This document shows, in pieces, positions 1-6,022 of a DNA stretch of 10,603 bases. Below the pieces are notes generated by a model. It worked only from the letters and a program-made list of their open reading frames with translations. It was not told the DNA's origin and made no database searches. The DNA is taken from the IMG/VR virus record IMGVR_UViG_2711768062_000001. One strand, 5' to 3'. Origin of the DNA: a virus (taxonomy: Duplodnaviria > Heunggongvirae > Uroviricota > Caudoviricetes). The position numbers and the translations under genes were made by a program. Numbering within the stretch: position 1 is the first letter of the stretch; every line of letters starts with the position of its first letter.

Positions 1-231
1 CAGCTGGCGTTTGAGACGTGCAATCTCGGTAGACATCTCCAGTTCACGTTCAGAAGACGTCTGCTGATTTTGCTGTTTACTGCGCCAGTTGTAGAGCTGT
101 GATTCATACAGGCTGAGTTCACGGGCTGCGGCAGTAACACCGATGCGTTCAGCAAGCTTCAGGGCTTCACTGCGAAATTCAGGCGAATGCTGTTTACGGG
201 GTTTTTTACTGGTTGATACTGTTTTTGTCAT
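1..231 (-). CDS. insE: IS3 transposase OrfA (InsE), N-terminal 77 codons; the 3' part and OrfB lie outside the window
   Basis: Minus-strand ATG at 231..229 opens MTKTVSTSKKPRKQHSPEFRSEALKLAERIGVTAAARELSLYESQLYNWRSKQQNQQTSSERELEMSTEIARLKRQL..., matching my recollection of IS3 InsE (HTH N-terminal domain). The frame is open to the window edge. Confidence 0.8.
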   Translation of the reverse strand, partial: MTKTVSTSKKPRKQHSPEFRSEALKLAERIGVTAAARELSLYESQLYNWRSKQQNQQTSSERELEMSTEIARLKRQL

Positions 232-296
232 GTGAGTCACCTCTGACTGAGAGTTTACTCACTTAGCCGCGTGTCCACTATTGCTGGGTAAGATCA
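1..296 (-). mobile_element. IS3 (IS3 family) left end, partial; the element continues beyond the window start
   Basis: Reverse complement of 241-296 reads TGATCTTACCCAGCAATAGTGGACACGCGGCTAAGTGAGTAAACTCTCAGTCAGAG, which I recognise as the IS3 terminal inverted repeat and leader, followed by the OrfA start. Sequence character changes abruptly at 297 (AT-rich prophage DNA). Only one end is visible, so the target-site duplication cannot be checked. Confidence 0.85.
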
Positions 297-438
297 TTTC
301 TCTACCTGCCGTTGGTGTTCGTGCCCGAGGCAGATAGCCTCAAGCACCCGCAGTCATTCTACTTAACTAAGATTTCCCCGCAAACCGTTTTTGTCCAGCA
401 CAGTAAATATCCAACTAAACCAATGGAGTTCGCTGTAT

Positions 439-618
439 TTACCGCCAGTATTCAATGCACATGACCGCCATGAACACCCCTAAAAAAAGGGCATTTATAT
501 ATCCAAATATTAATATCAAAACATCAACTTTTTCCATATACCTTGCTGTGAAGATGATGGGCATACATGATGCGAACAACCAGAACGCAACAAACAAAAA
601 CTGCAATGCGTTTTTCAT
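439..618 (-). CDS. small hydrophobic protein, 59 aa, two predicted transmembrane helices, unknown function
   Basis: MKNALQFLFVAFWLFASCMPIIFTARYMEKVDVLILIFGYINALFLGVFMAVMCIEYWR. Minus-strand GGAGG lies 7 nt upstream of the ATG at 618 (gattgtaGGAGGaataATG), so the internal ATG is preferred over the 72-aa start at 657 given in the ORF track. TAA stop at 441..439. Confidence 0.45.
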   Translation of the reverse strand: MKNALQFLFVAFWLFASCMPIIFTARYMEKVDVLILIFGYINALFLGVFMAVMCIEYWR

Positions 619-1052
619 TATTCCTCCTACAATCAATGTGCAATTACATTTAAACACACCTCAATTTGGCCGGACATATAAATATCTAAACCAGAAAAAA
701 TCACTTACATAGCGTTACAAACTCTTTAGTCTAAAGGTTCATCGTAAAACATTCCCCATACTTATCAGTCCGTTCCGCGCCAGGTAGCTCATTGCCTTAT
801 CTGGCAACCTGTAATCAGGTTTCCGCTTTTTCAGTTGGCTGGTCGTTTAACCGACATAGTTAACCCATTAATCTAGTTGCCGGATGTTGGTGGATTTTCG
901 CGTTTTAGTTGTTCATAAAAGTGCACAGCTTTAACCAATTCTTCTGATGTAACCGGGACTGGTGAGGCAGTGAATAAGGCCTGAATTTGATAGTTCGGCC
1001 TGTCGTTACAATCCTCTTTTTTCGGTACATATTTCCAGTCACCAGACCACTA

Positions 1053-1160
1053 CTTCCCCTGAAAGTCCGTAACGCCTTTTTTCACGTAGCGATATCGCCA
1101 TGTCACTGGTTTTGCTTGCCCCGCCGTTTCATGCCCTTCCTGATAATTAATCTCGCTCAT
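1053..1160 (-). CDS. micro-ORF, 35 aa hydrophilic (MSEINYQEGHETAGQAKPVTWRYRYVKKGVTDFQGK), hypothetical
   Basis: ATG at 1160..1158 preceded by a G-rich SD-like run (gaGTGGGGcgatgaATG); TAG stop at 1055..1053. Below the ORF-track size threshold; no homology recognised. Confidence 0.2.
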
Positions 1161-1397
1161 TCATCGCCCCACTCATCACAATATGCTTCGACCGGAGTTT
1201 TTCCCGCTTCATAGTCATCACGCTAGGATTCGACATCAGCAGCACTTCCACCGCGTAACTCACCATAGTCCATTAATAGTTCATCCCGCTCTTCAAAACT
1301 GATGTTATATTTAGCTGAACAAAAATCAGCCACTTTGTTCTTCCTCATCGTCTTTTATTTCGTGGTATGAGTAATTGCAGTAGTTAAAGAAAATTTC

Positions 1398-1508
1398 TTA
1401 TGCTCCGTCATGAATTTCATCAGGTGTTGCGTCATCGTCCACTTCGAATACATCCTCAAAATCTCCACCAGCTATTCCCGTTTCAATAATAATTTTGAAC
1501 TTTCGCAT
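1398..1508 (-). CDS. micro-ORF, 36 aa acidic (MRKFKIIIETGIAGGDFEDVFEVDDDATPDEIHDGA), hypothetical
   Basis: ATG at 1508..1506; on the minus strand an AGGAGG is followed by a GC hairpin (ccgccc-gaaa-gggcgg, plus-strand 1516-1531) and then the ATG, a geometry that could bring SD and start codon together. TAA stop at 1400..1398. Confidence 0.2.
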   Translation of the reverse strand: MRKFKIIIETGIAGGDFEDVFEVDDDATPDEIHDGA

Positions 1509-1770
1509 TTCACTACCGCCCTTTCGGGCGGCCTCCTGATGTTCTGAGGGTGCAGAAATCCATCCGGTTAAGGATTAAGTTTTATTTACAGAACTGAATT
1601 TAATTATTCAGATATACGTATCTGTAACCTTACGAATCTACTCACTGGATGCCTCTTTCATAAAAATAATCCAGTGGGTTTTATCGTTTTTTCCCTGTTC
1701 GTTGACAGATAACAGGCTTTCTATCTGTCAGTGCCAGAATCTGGCTTACCGGTATTTGCGTTTCATTCCA

Positions 1771-2127
1771 TTAAAAAATCAGAACGCCGTGCGGCCTCAA
1801 CACCCGAAAAGCTTCTTTAAATCTCTGTCGCAAATCATCACGCCAGGCATCTTTATTCAGCCGTCCATATTTCTTTCCCATCCAGGCGTTATCACCAACA
1901 CGCTCAAGATGCGGAGGGTCTAATACAACCATCGAAAAAGATGCGTCTGCAAATGATAATGCACGAAAATCTGCGATAATGTCAGGGCTGATAATCAAGC
2001 GTCTCCCATTGCGTAATGTGTATCCTTCTTTTCTGATATCGCTAAATATCGCCCGTTCGTCAGACTTATCGAACCAGAACATGCGGCTGCCACAGCACAT
2101 ATCAAGAATGGTTGCCGGTGCACTCAC
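1771..2127 (-). CDS. DNA methyltransferase-like protein, 118 aa, probably truncated by an in-frame TAA (see findings)
   Basis: Translation has an AdoMet-binding-like N-terminus (ILDMCCGSRMFWFD) and a (D/N/S)PP(Y/F/H)-type motif IV (VVLDPPHL) about 60 residues later, the order seen in amino-MTases. Start ATG overlaps the stop of the upstream 140-aa gene (ATGA at 2124-2127), implying translational coupling. Confidence 0.5.
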   Translation of the reverse strand: MSAPATILDMCCGSRMFWFDKSDERAIFSDIRKEGYTLRNGRRLIISPDIIADFRALSFADASFSMVVLDPPHLERVGDNAWMGKKYGRLNKDAWRDDLRQRFKEAFRVLRPHGVLIF

Positions 2128-2546
2128 TGCGCCACGTCCTGAAAATTACCCTGATAGAAAGCCAGTATGCGCTGCATAACTTCGCTCTTCCGGCACTCGC
2201 GACAGATTATGTTTAGGCGACTGTCGTAGCGACGTATTTCTCCGTCAGGTGATGACCAGATAAGGTCCGGATCAACCACAGCAGGTTTCTTCACCTTTGC
2301 CCTCGAGAGTTTTTTGCGGGCGTTTTGCCAGTCCTTACGCGCCTGTTCAGAGGGGAATAACCCGTAGCCGGAGTTGTATACATCGCCACTGGCTACCAGC
2401 TCTCTGGCAAGAACGCTCATCAGATATCTAGTCGCACCTGTTTTAGCTTCCAGTTGCCGTAACGTCTCACGGCCGCTCTGGCGCACGAGTTCCACCACCT
2501 GCCATTTAATTTTTTCCCGCTCTTCTTGTGTAAAAACTTTTGCCAC
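2124..2546 (-). CDS. hypothetical protein, 140 aa, basic, with a possible winged-helix-like segment
   Basis: Long open frame with a GTG start at 2546..2544 preceded by aaGGGGGActt; protein MAKVFTQEEREKIKWQVVELVRQSGRETLRQLEAKTGATRYLMSVLARELVASGDVYN.... No family recognised. Sits between the replication initiator and the MTase-like gene in the same operon. Confidence 0.55.
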   Translation of the reverse strand: MAKVFTQEEREKIKWQVVELVRQSGRETLRQLEAKTGATRYLMSVLARELVASGDVYNSGYGLFPSEQARKDWQNARKKLSRAKVKKPAVVDPDLIWSSPDGEIRRYDSRLNIICRECRKSEVMQRILAFYQGNFQDVAQ

Positions 2547-2586
2547 AAGTCCCCCTTAAAATTACCTCATGACCTGAAATCAACAC

Positions 2587-3552
2587 TTATCCTCTGAAAC
2601 CAGGCGGAATTTCTGTATCCGGTTCAGAAATATGATTAACACAACGCTGTACAGGTGAACGTCCCAGGCGGATGACCAGTTCGTCCCATTTTTCGCGGAG
2701 CTTTGACGGGCTCATGATGTTTTTTACCCAGAATGGATCTCGCTGAATCCGACCAAACATTTCGCAAATTTGTCTGTGGCTTCTGCCATCCAGCATCCGC
2801 ATTGTGCGCACGTCATTGGCCCAGGCAGTCCAGTTAGGCTCTTTTGGTCGCATGATCTCGCCATCATCACTGGCTGCCTGTTCGTAGAGACCCACGATCC
2901 GCCCCCAGATCCACTGCGCACACGCCAAATCCTCCCTGCTACCCCACTGGCGTTTTTTCGCACTAAACACAACCGCGTCGGAGTTCCGGGTTAAAAAATC
3001 CTGTTCAGTCGTCTGCGGGTCCGGTTGCGAAGCTTCCGGACGAAAAGTGTTTTTATTCTCTGTAGTAATCTCTGTTGTATTCTCTGTAAGATCATCAGGC
3101 CATTTTGACCCGATGACATTGGGTCGTTTTGAATCAATGGAGCGTTTCATTTTGACCTCTTCCATCGTGTCATTTTGACCTGATGGAGCGGCGCATTTTG
3201 AACCGATGGATTCGCTCAATTTGCCACCATCTAAAAGCTCGCTCCCATAGTTGATCGTGTAGAAATTGGTCATATCGCGCTTTGATTTATTGAGCTTTTC
3301 ACAACGCAAAAGCCCCAGCGTTTTCAGACTTGCAAACGCGCGCTTTAACGTTGACTCTGACCAGAATGGGAACTGTTCCAGCCATTGTTCCGTTGTGTTA
3401 TAAATCCAGCGAACACCATCACATTCCATGCCGGAGTTGGTATCTCTCAACCAGTAGTGCAGTTGTTGCAAAACAATGGCTTCGTTTAAGCCAATTTTCA
3501 TTGCCAGCTGCGTGTTTATAACCAGTGGGCGTTCAGCAAAAAGAAGGCTCAT
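2587..3552 (-). CDS. phage replication initiator (lambda O-like, two domains with low-complexity linker) containing the putative origin iterons
   Basis: Long ORF; ATG at 3552..3550 preferred (the track's 339-aa form starts at TTG 3606). N-terminal domain ...LVINTQLAMKIGLNEAIVLQQLHYWL...STLKRAFASLKTLGLLRCEKL, then a T/E/N/Q-rich linker, then a Trp-rich C-terminal domain. The linker-coding DNA holds an iteron array (3101-3230), as in the lambda O gene and ori-lambda. Confidence 0.6.
   Translation of the reverse strand: MSLLFAERPLVINTQLAMKIGLNEAIVLQQLHYWLRDTNSGMECDGVRWIYNTTEQWLEQFPFWSESTLKRAFASLKTLGLLRCEKLNKSKRDMTNFYTINYGSELLDGGKLSESIGSKCAAPSGQNDTMEEVKMKRSIDSKRPNVIGSKWPDDLTENTTEITTENKNTFRPEASQPDPQTTEQDFLTRNSDAVVFSAKKRQWGSREDLACAQWIWGRIVGLYEQAASDDGEIMRPKEPNWTAWANDVRTMRMLDGRSHRQICEMFGRIQRDPFWVKNIMSPSKLREKWDELVIRLGRSPVQRCVNHISEPDTEIPPGFRG
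3101..3230. repeat. origin-like iteron array: 5-6 direct repeats of core CATTTTGACC at about 23-bp period
   Basis: Copies start at 3101 (cattttgacc), 3125 (cgttttgaatc, degenerate), 3148 (cattttgacc), 3171 (cattttgacc), 3194 (cattttgaac) and 3218 (caatttgcca, weak). Flanked at 3057-3089 by three TCTCTGT copies at 12-bp period and a short AT-rich patch at 3040-3056. Confidence 0.6.
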
Positions 3553-5795: not shown

Positions 5796-5853
5796 TTTCT
5801 GGTGACGTTTGGCGGTATCAGTTTTACTCCGTGACTGCTCTGCCGCCCTTTTT
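5796..5853 (+). ncRNA. dicF: DicF small RNA (Hfq-dependent sRNA that represses ftsZ translation), processed from the dicB operon transcript
   Basis: tttctggtgacgtttggcggtatcagttttactccgtgactgctctgccgccctttttaa matches the DicF sequence as I remember it, including the GGCGG...CCGCC stem and U-tract. It lies between ydfC and dicB, after a 340-nt untranslated spacer. Confidence 0.75.
5811..5853 (+). terminator. intrinsic terminator forming the 3' end of DicF (leaky; dicB and ydfD lie downstream)
   Basis: GC stem (ggcgg ... ccgcc) followed by CTTTTT at 5848-5853. Confidence 0.5.
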
Positions 5854-6022
5854 AAAGTGAATTTTGTGATGTGGTGAATGCGGCTGAGCGCACGCGGAAC
5901 AGTTAAAACCAAAAACAGTGTTATGGGTGGATTCTCTGTATCCGGCGTTAATTGTTAACTGGTTAACGTCACCTGGAGGCACCAGGCACCGCATCACAAA
6001 ACTCATTGTTGAGGGCGAGATA

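Follow-up and report, generated by a model that had tools for sequence, protein, structure and literature searches.

A seemingly gene-free kilobase in a Qin-type lambdoid prophage of Escherichia coli is very probably a block of decayed accessory genes

Positions 660-1770 of the window (the whole 10,603-nt stretch of DNA that was analyzed) very probably hold decayed accessory genes, all on the minus strand, of the early rightward operon (the cro/dicC side) in a lambdoid E. coli prophage of the Qin type. The type of prophage is given by its context of dicC, dicA, DicF, dicB, exonuclease, excisionase, and integrase. Intact homologues in the related loci L002, L003, L005, and L007 cover all four genes at 81-93% identity, as evidenced by tblastn, and across the four genes the window carries premature stops, frameshifts, deletions, and the loss of a start codon. 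The small genes for 60- and 58-aa proteins keep a single frame, while the methyltransferase gene and the third small gene each change frame once. The first-pass annotation had proposed either several very small genes, as in nin-type regions, or frameshift damage to one or two genes. These readings turn out to be combined, and the lesions are mainly in-frame nonsense codons rather than frameshifts. Intact genes in homologous prophages, which that annotation had named as the mark of decay, were looked for and found in related prophages.

The description of the interval as lacking a long open reading frame holds. The sole ORF of at least 60 aa wholly within 660-1770 starts with TTG (987..1214, plus strand, 75 aa), and the plus-strand ORFs 455..712 and 1702..1923 overlap its edges only. 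The TTG ORF had been considered spurious, a judgment supported by its position antisense to two conserved genes and by its lack of a family match. The longest ORF in 500 dinucleotide shuffles averaged 85 aa; the observed 75 aa is no longer, and so the region resembles random sequence, which is unusual for a phage genome. The micro-ORFs and hairpins of the first-pass annotation were all recovered from the sequence at the positions given there. On the minus strand, the micro-ORFs are 1508..1398 (36 aa), 1348..1223 (41 aa), and 1160..1050 (36 aa, containing 1160..1053 of the earlier list), along with 1218..1147 and 1030..905, which are internal-ATG versions of ORFs 1266..1147 and 1042..905. The suggestion that micro-ORFs are remnants of real genes applies to 1508..1398, 1348..1223, and 1160..1053. 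It fails for 1218..1147 and 1030..905, which are chance ORFs that lie in the wrong frame and match no family.

The DUF7167 pseudogene (PF23768, phrog_1997; 1326..1508, minus strand, 60 codons) was delineated with tblastn, a codon table, Pfam, PHROG, and PGAP. Its lesion converts Lys37 from AAA to TAA at 1400..1398, and tblastn aligns the window copy with intact homologues over all 60 residues at 90-93% identity in a single frame with one stop. The 36-aa acidic micro-ORF 1508..1398 is the N-terminal stub of this gene and on its own still matches phrog_1997 (E 4e-16). An intact homologue, to which the window copy is 93% identical, matches the Pfam family with an E value of 2.4e-14 (53.6 bits versus a cutoff of 24.4) and phrog_1997 with an E value of 2e-30, and the 60-aa protein is present in 74 of 75 scorable IMG/VR loci. 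Plain counts from the codon table give 4 nonsynonymous versus 4 synonymous differences. PGAP labels the corresponding DNA of E. coli IAI1 "DUF7167 family protein, internal stop." An AlphaFold2 model of the protein (pLDDT 79) has a beta-beta-alpha-beta-alpha arrangement, and a Foldseek search with this model against the PDB returned no match with an E value of <1. Faint likenesses to T7 Gp2 and phage p56 (probability of 0.3 or less) were not taken as evidence.

Downstream lies the pseudogene of a 58-aa acidic protein (phrog_519; 1157..1333, minus strand), identified by tblastn, a codon table, and PHROG. It shares 8 nt with the DUF7167 gene and 4 nt (ATGA) with the gene that follows. Two lesions are present, namely, a change of the start ATG to GTG (1333) and of Trp37 from TGG to TAG at 1225..1223, and micro-ORF 1348..1223 is the stub of this gene. 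The window copy can be aligned over 58 residues at 81-83% identity in a single frame with one stop (tblastn), and it differs from that of L002 by 10 nonsynonymous and 9 synonymous changes (codon table, plain counts), which may reflect relaxed constraint. An intact homologue matches phrog_519 (E 4.5e-23), and the gene is intact, at 56-61 aa, in 71 of 75 scored IMG/VR loci. L053 carries an independent stop at W37. Intact 60- and 58-aa genes occur in L002 and L003, and intact 60-, 58-, and 171-aa genes occur in L007.

The third small gene encoded a 171-aa protein (phrog_660; 739..1160, minus strand), as traced by tblastn, a four-way DNA alignment, PHROG, and PGAP. Its N terminus, MSEINYQ, is shared with ead/Ea22-like proteins of relatives. 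A TAG at codon 37 (1052..1050) leaves micro-ORF 1160..1053 as the stub. A second TAG follows at 875..873, and the ancestral stop lies at 741..739. Two deletions are also present, one of 90 nt (about 896-888), flanked by AATCC(R)CCA direct repeats, and one of 4 nt (about 842), which causes a frameshift. In tblastn, residues 1-91 of the intact L007 protein match the window at 86% identity, and residues 127-171 match in another frame. The intact homologue matches phrog_660 with an E value of 1e-42, a PDB sequence search with the 171-aa protein gave only chance matches, and NCBIfam holds no family for any of the 60-, 58-, and 171-aa genes. PGAP describes 739..1160 in IAI1 as "hypothetical protein, frameshifted; internal stop." Between this dead gene and a small membrane ORF (ATG at 618, preceded by AGGAGG at 628..623) is a minus-strand spacer (660..738), in which scans found no promoter, terminator, or Rfam match; it is collinear with L001, L003, and L004 only.

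At the other end of the interval is the pseudogene of a class I SAM-dependent (DNA) methyltransferase (1638..2127, minus strand), of which only 1638-1770 lie within 660-1770. The evidence comes from tblastn, DNA alignment, phrog_954 (E 7e-75), and PGAP, which calls the gene in the identical IAI1 DNA a pseudogene, "frameshifted; internal stop." Lys119 is changed from AAA to TAA at 1773..1771, and the insertion of one G (GGG at 1695..1693) then shifts the frame. The ORF thus ends at codon 119 of 157 and changes frame afterward, which is not the structure of a working methyltransferase. The intact 157-aa homologue in L005 matches at 86% identity in two frames (tblastn), and the ancestral C terminus, GKNDKTHWIIFMK, is still legible at 1694..1656.

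We infer both the loss of function of the four genes and an order of events. The ancestral operon would have consisted of a DUF977 gene, the small DNA methyltransferase gene, a leader of roughly 100 nt, three coupled genes, and a hok locus. The three genes, for the 60-aa DUF7167 protein, the 58-aa acidic protein, and the 171-aa phrog_660 protein, would have been translationally coupled through their overlaps of 8 and 4 nt. The third gene was presumably the first to die, through the TAG at codon 37 and the 90-nt repeat-mediated deletion; both lesions are common to the 95%-identical sister lineage of L003. Next, in the lineage of the window, the methyltransferase gene would have acquired its AAA-to-TAA change plus the additional G, the DUF7167 gene its AAA-to-TAA change, and the 58-aa gene its ATG-to-GTG and TGG-to-TAG changes. 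Amino acid substitutions may then have built up after the nonsense knockouts, leaving the micro-ORFs as stubs upstream of stops plus two chance ORFs. Nothing in the interval needs to function.

The allele is common. Copies of the region with at least 99% identity number 511 records, E. coli IAI1 is 100% identical to 297-2600 of the window (297-2200 in a DNA comparison and 300-2600 in a sequence search), and four further near-identical copies of Qin, one of them the record Escherichia phage PhiR42_1, have identical lesions. A literature search for PhiR42_1 found nothing. The IS3 junction of the window had no match among the complete E. coli genomes of the collection, and a check of the K-12 Rac prophage for named homologues found none, with ydaF and ydaG being unrelated. 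In RefSeq, the IAI1 counterpart is NC_011741, 1687173-1688516. PGAP pseudogenes there are equivalent to 739-1160, 1326-1508, and 1638-2082 of the window, that is, to three of the four dead genes. Because RefSeq already marks these three as pseudogenes in identical DNA, what the interval displays is ordinary prophage decay, and the finding itself is ordinary and already annotated.

Could the truncated products of 36 to 41 aa be genuine small genes of the nin type, as functional units in their own right? Three stubs do retain start codons and ribosome-binding contexts, 1508..1398 still matches phrog_1997, and the allele is widespread; the wide spread, however, is accounted for by vertical inheritance of one prophage lineage. 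Moreover, each stub corresponds to codons 1-36 of a longer gene, which most relatives carry intact, and homology runs past each stop, in the same frame in both small genes. The 58-aa gene no longer starts with ATG and has accumulated nonsynonymous changes about equal in number to synonymous ones, and of the five micro-ORFs, two lie out of frame and lack homologues. We consider this explanation very unlikely. Programmed read-through or suppression would keep the genes functional with their stops decoded, and codon 37, where the first stop falls in all three small genes, would be part of the mechanism. Against this idea, both TAA and TAG occur among the stops, which arose at different times and are accompanied by start-codon loss, deletions, and frameshifts. 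Both K37 (AAA) and W37 (TGG) are one substitution away from a stop, and L053 has the independent W37 stop. Read-through can hardly be the explanation. The recurrence of codon 37 looks nonrandom, though the events were not contemporaneous; it was judged to be chance, given the different stops and times and the single substitution that separates AAA and TGG from a stop.

Hairpins were the other prominent feature of the interval. Perfect inverted repeats with arms of at least 6 nt number 8, compared with 3.6 +/- 1.9 in shuffles (3% of shuffles reach 8), and those with arms of at least 8 nt number 2, compared with 0.24 (1.4% of shuffles). This modest enrichment was counted against a reading of pure decay. 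A consensus scan found no excess of promoters, and none of the four flagged hairpins was called as a promoter or terminator; a scan of the whole window with Rfam 15 covariance models (E <=1) returned nothing in 660-1770. The only Rfam matches in the window are DicF (5797-5848) and a subthreshold STnc100 (5860-6000).

To the first-pass annotation, the repeat at 1643-1650 and 1669-1676 looked like a plus-strand intrinsic terminator and hinted at a small or antisense RNA ending at 1677-1694. An inverted-repeat search and folding recover the hairpin at 1640..1694 (ACTCACTGGAT-18 nt-ATCCAGTGGGT, then TTTTATCGTTTTTT), in which the arms ACTCACTGGAT/ATCCAGTGGGT pair 1640-1650 with 1669-1679 in an 11-bp stem. 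Such an RNA would be consistent with the stability of the plus-strand fold (-15.5 kcal/mol; z, -4.3), with the UUUUAUCGUUUUUU that follows the stem, and with the invariance of the repeat among E. coli relatives that have this methyltransferase. Yet a Rho-independent terminator combines a GC-rich stem, a loop of 3-8 nt, and a U-tract, and 1640-1694 offers a stem and a U-rich tail only; the 18-nt loop is why the terminator scan left it uncalled. Read in reverse complement, the whole stretch consists of the methyltransferase codons for GKNDKTHWIIFMK plus post-gene sequence. Its 5' arm and T-run complement the conserved codons GKNDKTHWI, and its 3' arm is what remains of an SD-GTG start region. 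Homologues from Salmonella, Klebsiella, and Pectobacterium lack the downstream arm, which amounts to only 6 bp in the Stx2c phage L092. No sigma-70-like plus-strand promoter was found within 300-1640, and no Rfam family matches. The hairpin is most likely fortuitous, and a plus-strand RNA ending there is very improbable.

The neighboring inverted repeat, TGACAGATA/TATCTGTCA (1703..1730; 1703-1711 with 1722-1730), found by the same two methods, falls in the methyltransferase codons LTDR...VICQ. It folds at -12.7 kcal/mol, and 6 of 200 shuffles are equally stable. L005 and L092 have TGACCGA/TCGGTCA instead, so both arms changed together, once; in other genera, the repeat is absent. With the exception of the hairpin in front of the DUF7167 start codon, the flagged hairpins can be regarded as by-products of coding sequence or as recombination scars.

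That exception belongs to the noncoding leader of the DUF7167 gene block (1509..1637, minus strand, 129 nt), which was studied in an alignment of 35 distinct leaders from 80 IMG/VR and 7 E. coli or phage loci. The leader is conserved from about 1611 downward behind differing upstream genes, and homology to relatives without the methyltransferase ends at 1611. Comparison with L092 indicates that 1612-1645 resembles the remnant of the SD and GTG start of an Ea22-like gene, a recombination scar. The 5' edge of the conserved module, a mosaic boundary, carries the palindrome CTGAAT-AATTAA-ATTCAG (1594..1611). Most relatives have this palindrome, or a form of it ending in ATTTAG, where homology starts. 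As a hairpin it is weak (-5.3 kcal/mol), and it was rejected as a LexA box because its spacing is CTG-N12-CAG, not CTG-N10-CAG. Further down, the RNAalifold consensus predicts a minus-strand helix, AAUCCUU-AACCGG-AGGGAUU (1557..1576), with 7 pairs and 98.8% of cells paired; in the window, a G-to-U change at 1562 breaks one pair. This helix is almost invariant, and across three leader helices in the 35 distinct leaders, covariation was no better than in shuffle controls. For a helix GAGGG/CCCUC, an apparent compensatory change in L041 did not survive a count of columns. A coding role for the leader, suggested by the 87-aa DUF7167 forms in some databases, was likewise dismissed: these forms arise only in rare variants that start with GVG or whose ATG is mutated, and an in-frame TAA closes the upstream ORF extension in most leader variants.

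Directly before the DUF7167 gene, sequence and folding reveal a candidate split ribosome-binding site (1516..1537, minus strand). A perfect Shine-Dalgarno (SD) sequence, AGGAGG (1537..1532), is followed by the 16-nt hairpin CCGCCC-GAAA-GGGCGG (1531..1516), 7 nt (1515..1509), and then the ATG at 1508. The element folds at -16.9 kcal/mol (z, -3.4), with none of 200 shuffles as stable. It is conserved, with 94.3% of cells paired, a value not above that of the shuffle control. Among the 35 distinct leaders, one pair is A-U in 2, with both sides changed from G-C, and an A-C intermediate occurs in 6. The layout is that of a split site, in which the SD lies more than about 15 nt away, a hairpin fills the gap, and the folded spacing is 5-11 nt; here, we infer that folding would reduce the distance between SD and AUG from 23 to 7 nt. 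The hairpin was probably functional in the intact ancestor, and thermodynamics, conservation, and analogy suggest a role in translation. Whether the hairpin is needed to unite the AGGAGG and the AUG of the DUF7167 block, as a functional split ribosome-binding site, is a more doubtful matter, and we put it forward tentatively. The upstream helix AAUCCUU/AGGGAUU might give a second layer of control. Within the window, the element would be a fossil, given that the downstream gene is dead. A nut/boxB-like site, with its GC stem and GAAA loop, was considered and set aside: the hairpin is situated some 3 kb into the operon and immediately precedes the AUG, and in some variants the loop reads GGCA.

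The main use of these findings is annotation hygiene. Four pseudogenes account for what seemed to be a kilobase without genes in a very common E. coli prophage, and one of them, the 58-aa gene at 1157-1333, goes beyond those called by PGAP. The interval also offers a small worked example of piecemeal prophage degradation, in which the loss of the third gene would have been followed by three single-base knockouts in one lineage. Finally, the SD-AUG hairpin is a cheap candidate in any search for T4-style split ribosome-binding sites in lambdoid phages.

Among known systems, the Qin (Kim) cryptic prophage of IAI1 is the nearest, with the same gene order as the window (DUF977, methyltransferase, DUF7167, and hypothetical genes) and the same pseudogene calls ("internal stop" and "frameshifted; internal stop"). 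Its PGAP annotation omits both the 58-aa pseudogene and the 59-aa membrane ORF, and where the window has IS3 at 1-296, IAI1 instead has an ISEsa1 remnant further along. For the three small genes, intact homologues match PF23768 (DUF7167)/PHROG 1997, PHROG 519, and PHROG 660 with E values of 2e-14 to 1e-42, whereas the window copies differ by premature stops and deletions. The methyltransferase resembles the small phage methyltransferases of PHROG 954, such as Salmonella phage vB_SosS_Oslo gp36 and Pectobacterium phage ZF40 gp20, in which the C-terminal motif WNETQIPV...GQRTGK..DKTHWIIF is kept across genera. In the window, by contrast, Cys replaces the conserved Gly of IGQRTGK, and the protein is truncated at codon 119 and then frameshifted.

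In arrangement, the block is like lambda nin and other early-right accessory blocks of lambdoid phages, where short, overlapping, coupled genes lie between the replication genes and a Q-type antiterminator. Those blocks are mosaic and have conserved boundary sequences, as here, but the genes in the window are inactivated. The split initiation regions of T4 genes 38 and 25 (Nivinskas et al. 1999; Malys and Nivinskas 2009; reviewed in PMC3014915) are the model for the SD-AUG hairpin. The settings differ, in that the present element comes from a temperate lambdoid prophage, has no sequence homology to the T4 regions, precedes a gene that is dead in the window, and shows no significant covariation. 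Nevertheless, the likeness is close in design, with a stable hairpin lying wholly between a good SD and the AUG: in T4, it shortens the spacing from 22 to 5 nt and from 27 to 11 nt (PMC3014915), and here it would do so from 23 to 7 nt. If the parallel is true, the arrangement of T4 genes 38 and 25 would also exist in temperate lambdoid phages of E. coli.

Positions 1-296 of the window read as the left end of IS3; the sequence from 297 on matches the Qin-type prophage of Escherichia coli IAI1 at 100% identity (search query, window 300-2600; alignment, window 297-2200). The minus strand carries, in order, dicC (cro-like), a YdaT-family gene, the gene for an O-like 321-aa protein, DUF977, and a SAM-dependent methyltransferase gene; the plus strand carries dicA, ydfA/B/C, DicF, dicB, ydfD, exonuclease, excisionase, and integrase. 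This gene order places the interval 660-1770 in the early rightward operon, with the replication genes upstream and the hok locus downstream. About 511 records contain the region at ≥99% identity.

The IS3 end adjoins a 100-nt stretch (297-396) that, in relatives, precedes the hok/hokD coding sequence by 117-216 nt. IS3 thus either lies within the hok leader or has removed it, and this junction is absent from all complete E. coli genomes in the collection searched. The module at 397-738, found only in the lineages of L001 and L004 (Qin copies) and L003 (strain MLI108K3), bears a minus-strand 59-aa ORF with two hydrophobic segments (window 439-657; ATG at 618, perfect Shine-Dalgarno [SD] AGGAGG at 628..623; 72 aa when read from GTG at 657). 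This ORF is missing from the PGAP annotation of the same DNA in IAI1, matches no Pfam or PHROG family, and has 35 homologues, of which every named one is from E. coli or Shigella. Elsewhere in the prophage, an Rfam scan located the DicF sRNA at 5797-5848 on the plus strand (RF00039, 76.7 bits) and, directly downstream of it and just upstream of dicB, a sub-threshold match to STnc100 (RF02076) at 5860-6000 on the same strand (38.4 bits, gathering score 47, E 1.4e-5).

The interval is an instance of routine accessory-gene decay in a widespread defective prophage, most of it already annotated in RefSeq. In the identical IAI1 DNA, PGAP lists three pseudogenes, at the equivalents of window 739-1160 ("hypothetical protein, frameshifted; internal stop"), 1326-1508 ("DUF7167 family protein, internal stop"), and 1638-2082 (the methyltransferase). 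In tblastn searches, the proteins of intact relatives gave full-length homology to the window, broken by stops. The ORF lists agree with the first-pass annotation that no ORF of at least 60 aa lies wholly within the interval except a plus-strand, TTG-initiated one (987..1214). The longest ORF is 75 aa, versus a mean of 85 aa in 500 dinucleotide shuffles, and is thus random-like. The five minus-strand micro-ORFs described there all exist, two of them starting at ATG codons internal to slightly longer ORFs in the lists. Those at 1508..1398, 1348..1223, and 1160..1053 correspond to codons 1-36 of three small genes, the second with five spurious codons added in front; those at 1218..1147 and 1030..905 lie in other frames, and neither they nor the TTG ORF matched a family. 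The earlier proposal of either small nin-type genes or frameshift-broken genes was half right: the genes are small and of nin type, and they are broken, mostly via nonsense codons.

Intact versions show what was lost. Strain 95-3322 retains all three small genes, namely DUF7167 (60 aa), the 58-aa gene that overlaps it, and the gene for a 171-aa protein; strains G749 and MLI108K3 retain the first two, and an O111 strain has an intact 157-aa methyltransferase. The small-gene products match PF23768/DUF7167 plus phrog_1997, phrog_519, and phrog_660, and the methyltransferase is a member of phrog_954. The 60-aa DUF7167 occurs in 74 of 75 scorable IMG/VR loci, and a full-length second gene in 71. 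The third position is mosaic among relatives, occupied by 171-aa, 119-aa, or Ea22-like genes, all starting MSEINYQ. Net charges counted from the sequences, about -14 for DUF7167 and about -12 for the 58-aa protein, make both very acidic. An AlphaFold2 model of DUF7167 (pLDDT 79) has a beta-beta-alpha-beta-alpha arrangement with no significant neighbour in the PDB, which also holds no solved relative of the 171-aa protein.

All lesions are read on the minus strand. The methyltransferase carries a Lys119 stop (AAA to TAA, 1773..1771) and a frameshifting extra G in GGG at 1695..1693, with the ancestral C-terminus GKNDKTHWIIFMK still readable at 1694..1656. DUF7167 has a Lys37 stop (AAA to TAA, 1400..1398). 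The 58-aa gene (1333..1157) has lost its start (ATG to GTG), has a Trp37 stop (TGG to TAG, 1225..1223), and differs from the G749 copy by 10 non-synonymous and 9 synonymous changes. The third gene (1160..739) has two TAG codons, one at codon 37 (1052..1050) and one at 875..873, and two deletions: 90 nt lost between AATCC(R)CCA direct repeats at about 896-888, and 4 nt lost at about 842. The 118-aa methyltransferase stub (equivalent to window 1771-2127) is called intact by PGAP in L094, a Qin copy (NZ_CP024141.1). Some genomes list it in this way, as 'class I SAM-dependent methyltransferase' (WP_001310834.1), whereas others that do not differ at the lesions checked list it as a pseudogene.

The 95%-identical MLI108K3 lineage, in which DUF7167 and the 58-aa gene are intact, shares the TAG and the deletion junction of the third gene; the remaining lesions occur only in four near-identical Qin copies (L001, L004, L093, and L094). 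This distribution suggests that the third gene died first and that the others would have followed later, in the window's own lineage. One Qin copy has since been interrupted by an IS66-family element. L004 (PV340562.1, "Escherichia phage PhiR42_1") was submitted as a complete phage genome, with ECOR13 as its source. The four pseudogenes recur in its Qin-like sequence, along with transposase genes of IS type, and no describing paper was found in the literature. Codon 37 is the first in-frame stop in all three small genes, which follow one another (1400..1398, 1225..1223, and 1052..1050). The shared position is probably a coincidence because the events were not contemporaneous, the third-gene stop being older; because AAA and TGG are both one step from a stop; and because L053, an IMG/VR locus, has an independent Trp37 stop in its 58-aa gene.

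The four inverted repeats of the first-pass annotation were found where it had placed them, and such repeats are modestly enriched in the interval (arms of at least 6 nt, 8 versus 3.6 in 500 dinucleotide shuffles; at least 8 nt, 2 versus 0.24). The one at 1640-1694 has, on the plus strand, a stable 11-bp stem (-15.5 kcal/mol, z -4.3; 18-nt loop) followed by a T-run, and had been read as a possible terminator of a plus-strand or antisense RNA. That reading is unsupported, as neither a plus-strand promoter nor an Rfam family was found. The 5' arm and T-run are the complement of conserved methyltransferase codons (GKNDKTHWI). The 3' arm has its counterpart in an Stx2c phage (L092), in the SD-GTG start region of an Ea22-like gene behind the methyltransferase, which would make window 1612-1645 a recombination scar. 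The repeat is absent from homologues in other genera.

The repeat at 1703-1730 falls within methyltransferase codons LTDR...VICQ. Its counterpart in two E. coli relatives, the O111 strain and the Stx2c phage, is TGACCGA/TCGGTCA, which means that the two arms changed together; no repeat is present at this place in homologues from Salmonella, Klebsiella, and Pectobacterium. The entailed Gly-to-Cys change strikes the conserved IGQRTGK motif, and the repeat reflects one event, probably arising by chance. The palindrome at 1594-1611 folds weakly (-5.3 kcal/mol) and marks the 5' edge of a module conserved behind varying upstream genes; it is a mosaic boundary.

The remaining hairpin, at 1516-1531 (-16.9 kcal/mol, z -3.4), lies in a stretch that reads AGGAGG-CCGCCCGAAAGGGCGG-UAGUGAA-AUG on the mRNA strand. 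It exactly spans the gap from a perfect SD to the DUF7167 start codon, and folding therefore shortens the spacing from 23 to 7 nt. Over 35 distinct versions the leader is highly conserved, and in its common variants it is non-coding, any extension being closed by an in-frame TAA. Across these leaders, 94.3% of hairpin cells are paired, several versions have wobble-compatible changes, and one pair is A-U in two versions (both sides changed from G-C) and an A-C intermediate in six. In four IMG/VR loci (L069, L071, L072, and L061), a recombination breakpoint lies inside the SD-proximal hairpin, with unrelated sequence replacing both the upstream arm and AGGAGG, and with GGGCGGTAGTGAAATG retained. 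Since none of the measures over the 35 leaders exceeds the shuffle controls, we infer a translational role for the hairpin only tentatively, as a possibility somewhat short of even. The same arrangement is seen in two T4 genes with split initiation regions, in which the intervening structure enhances translation: the spacing falls from 22 to 5 nt in gene 38 and from 27 to 11 nt in gene 25 (PMC3014915).
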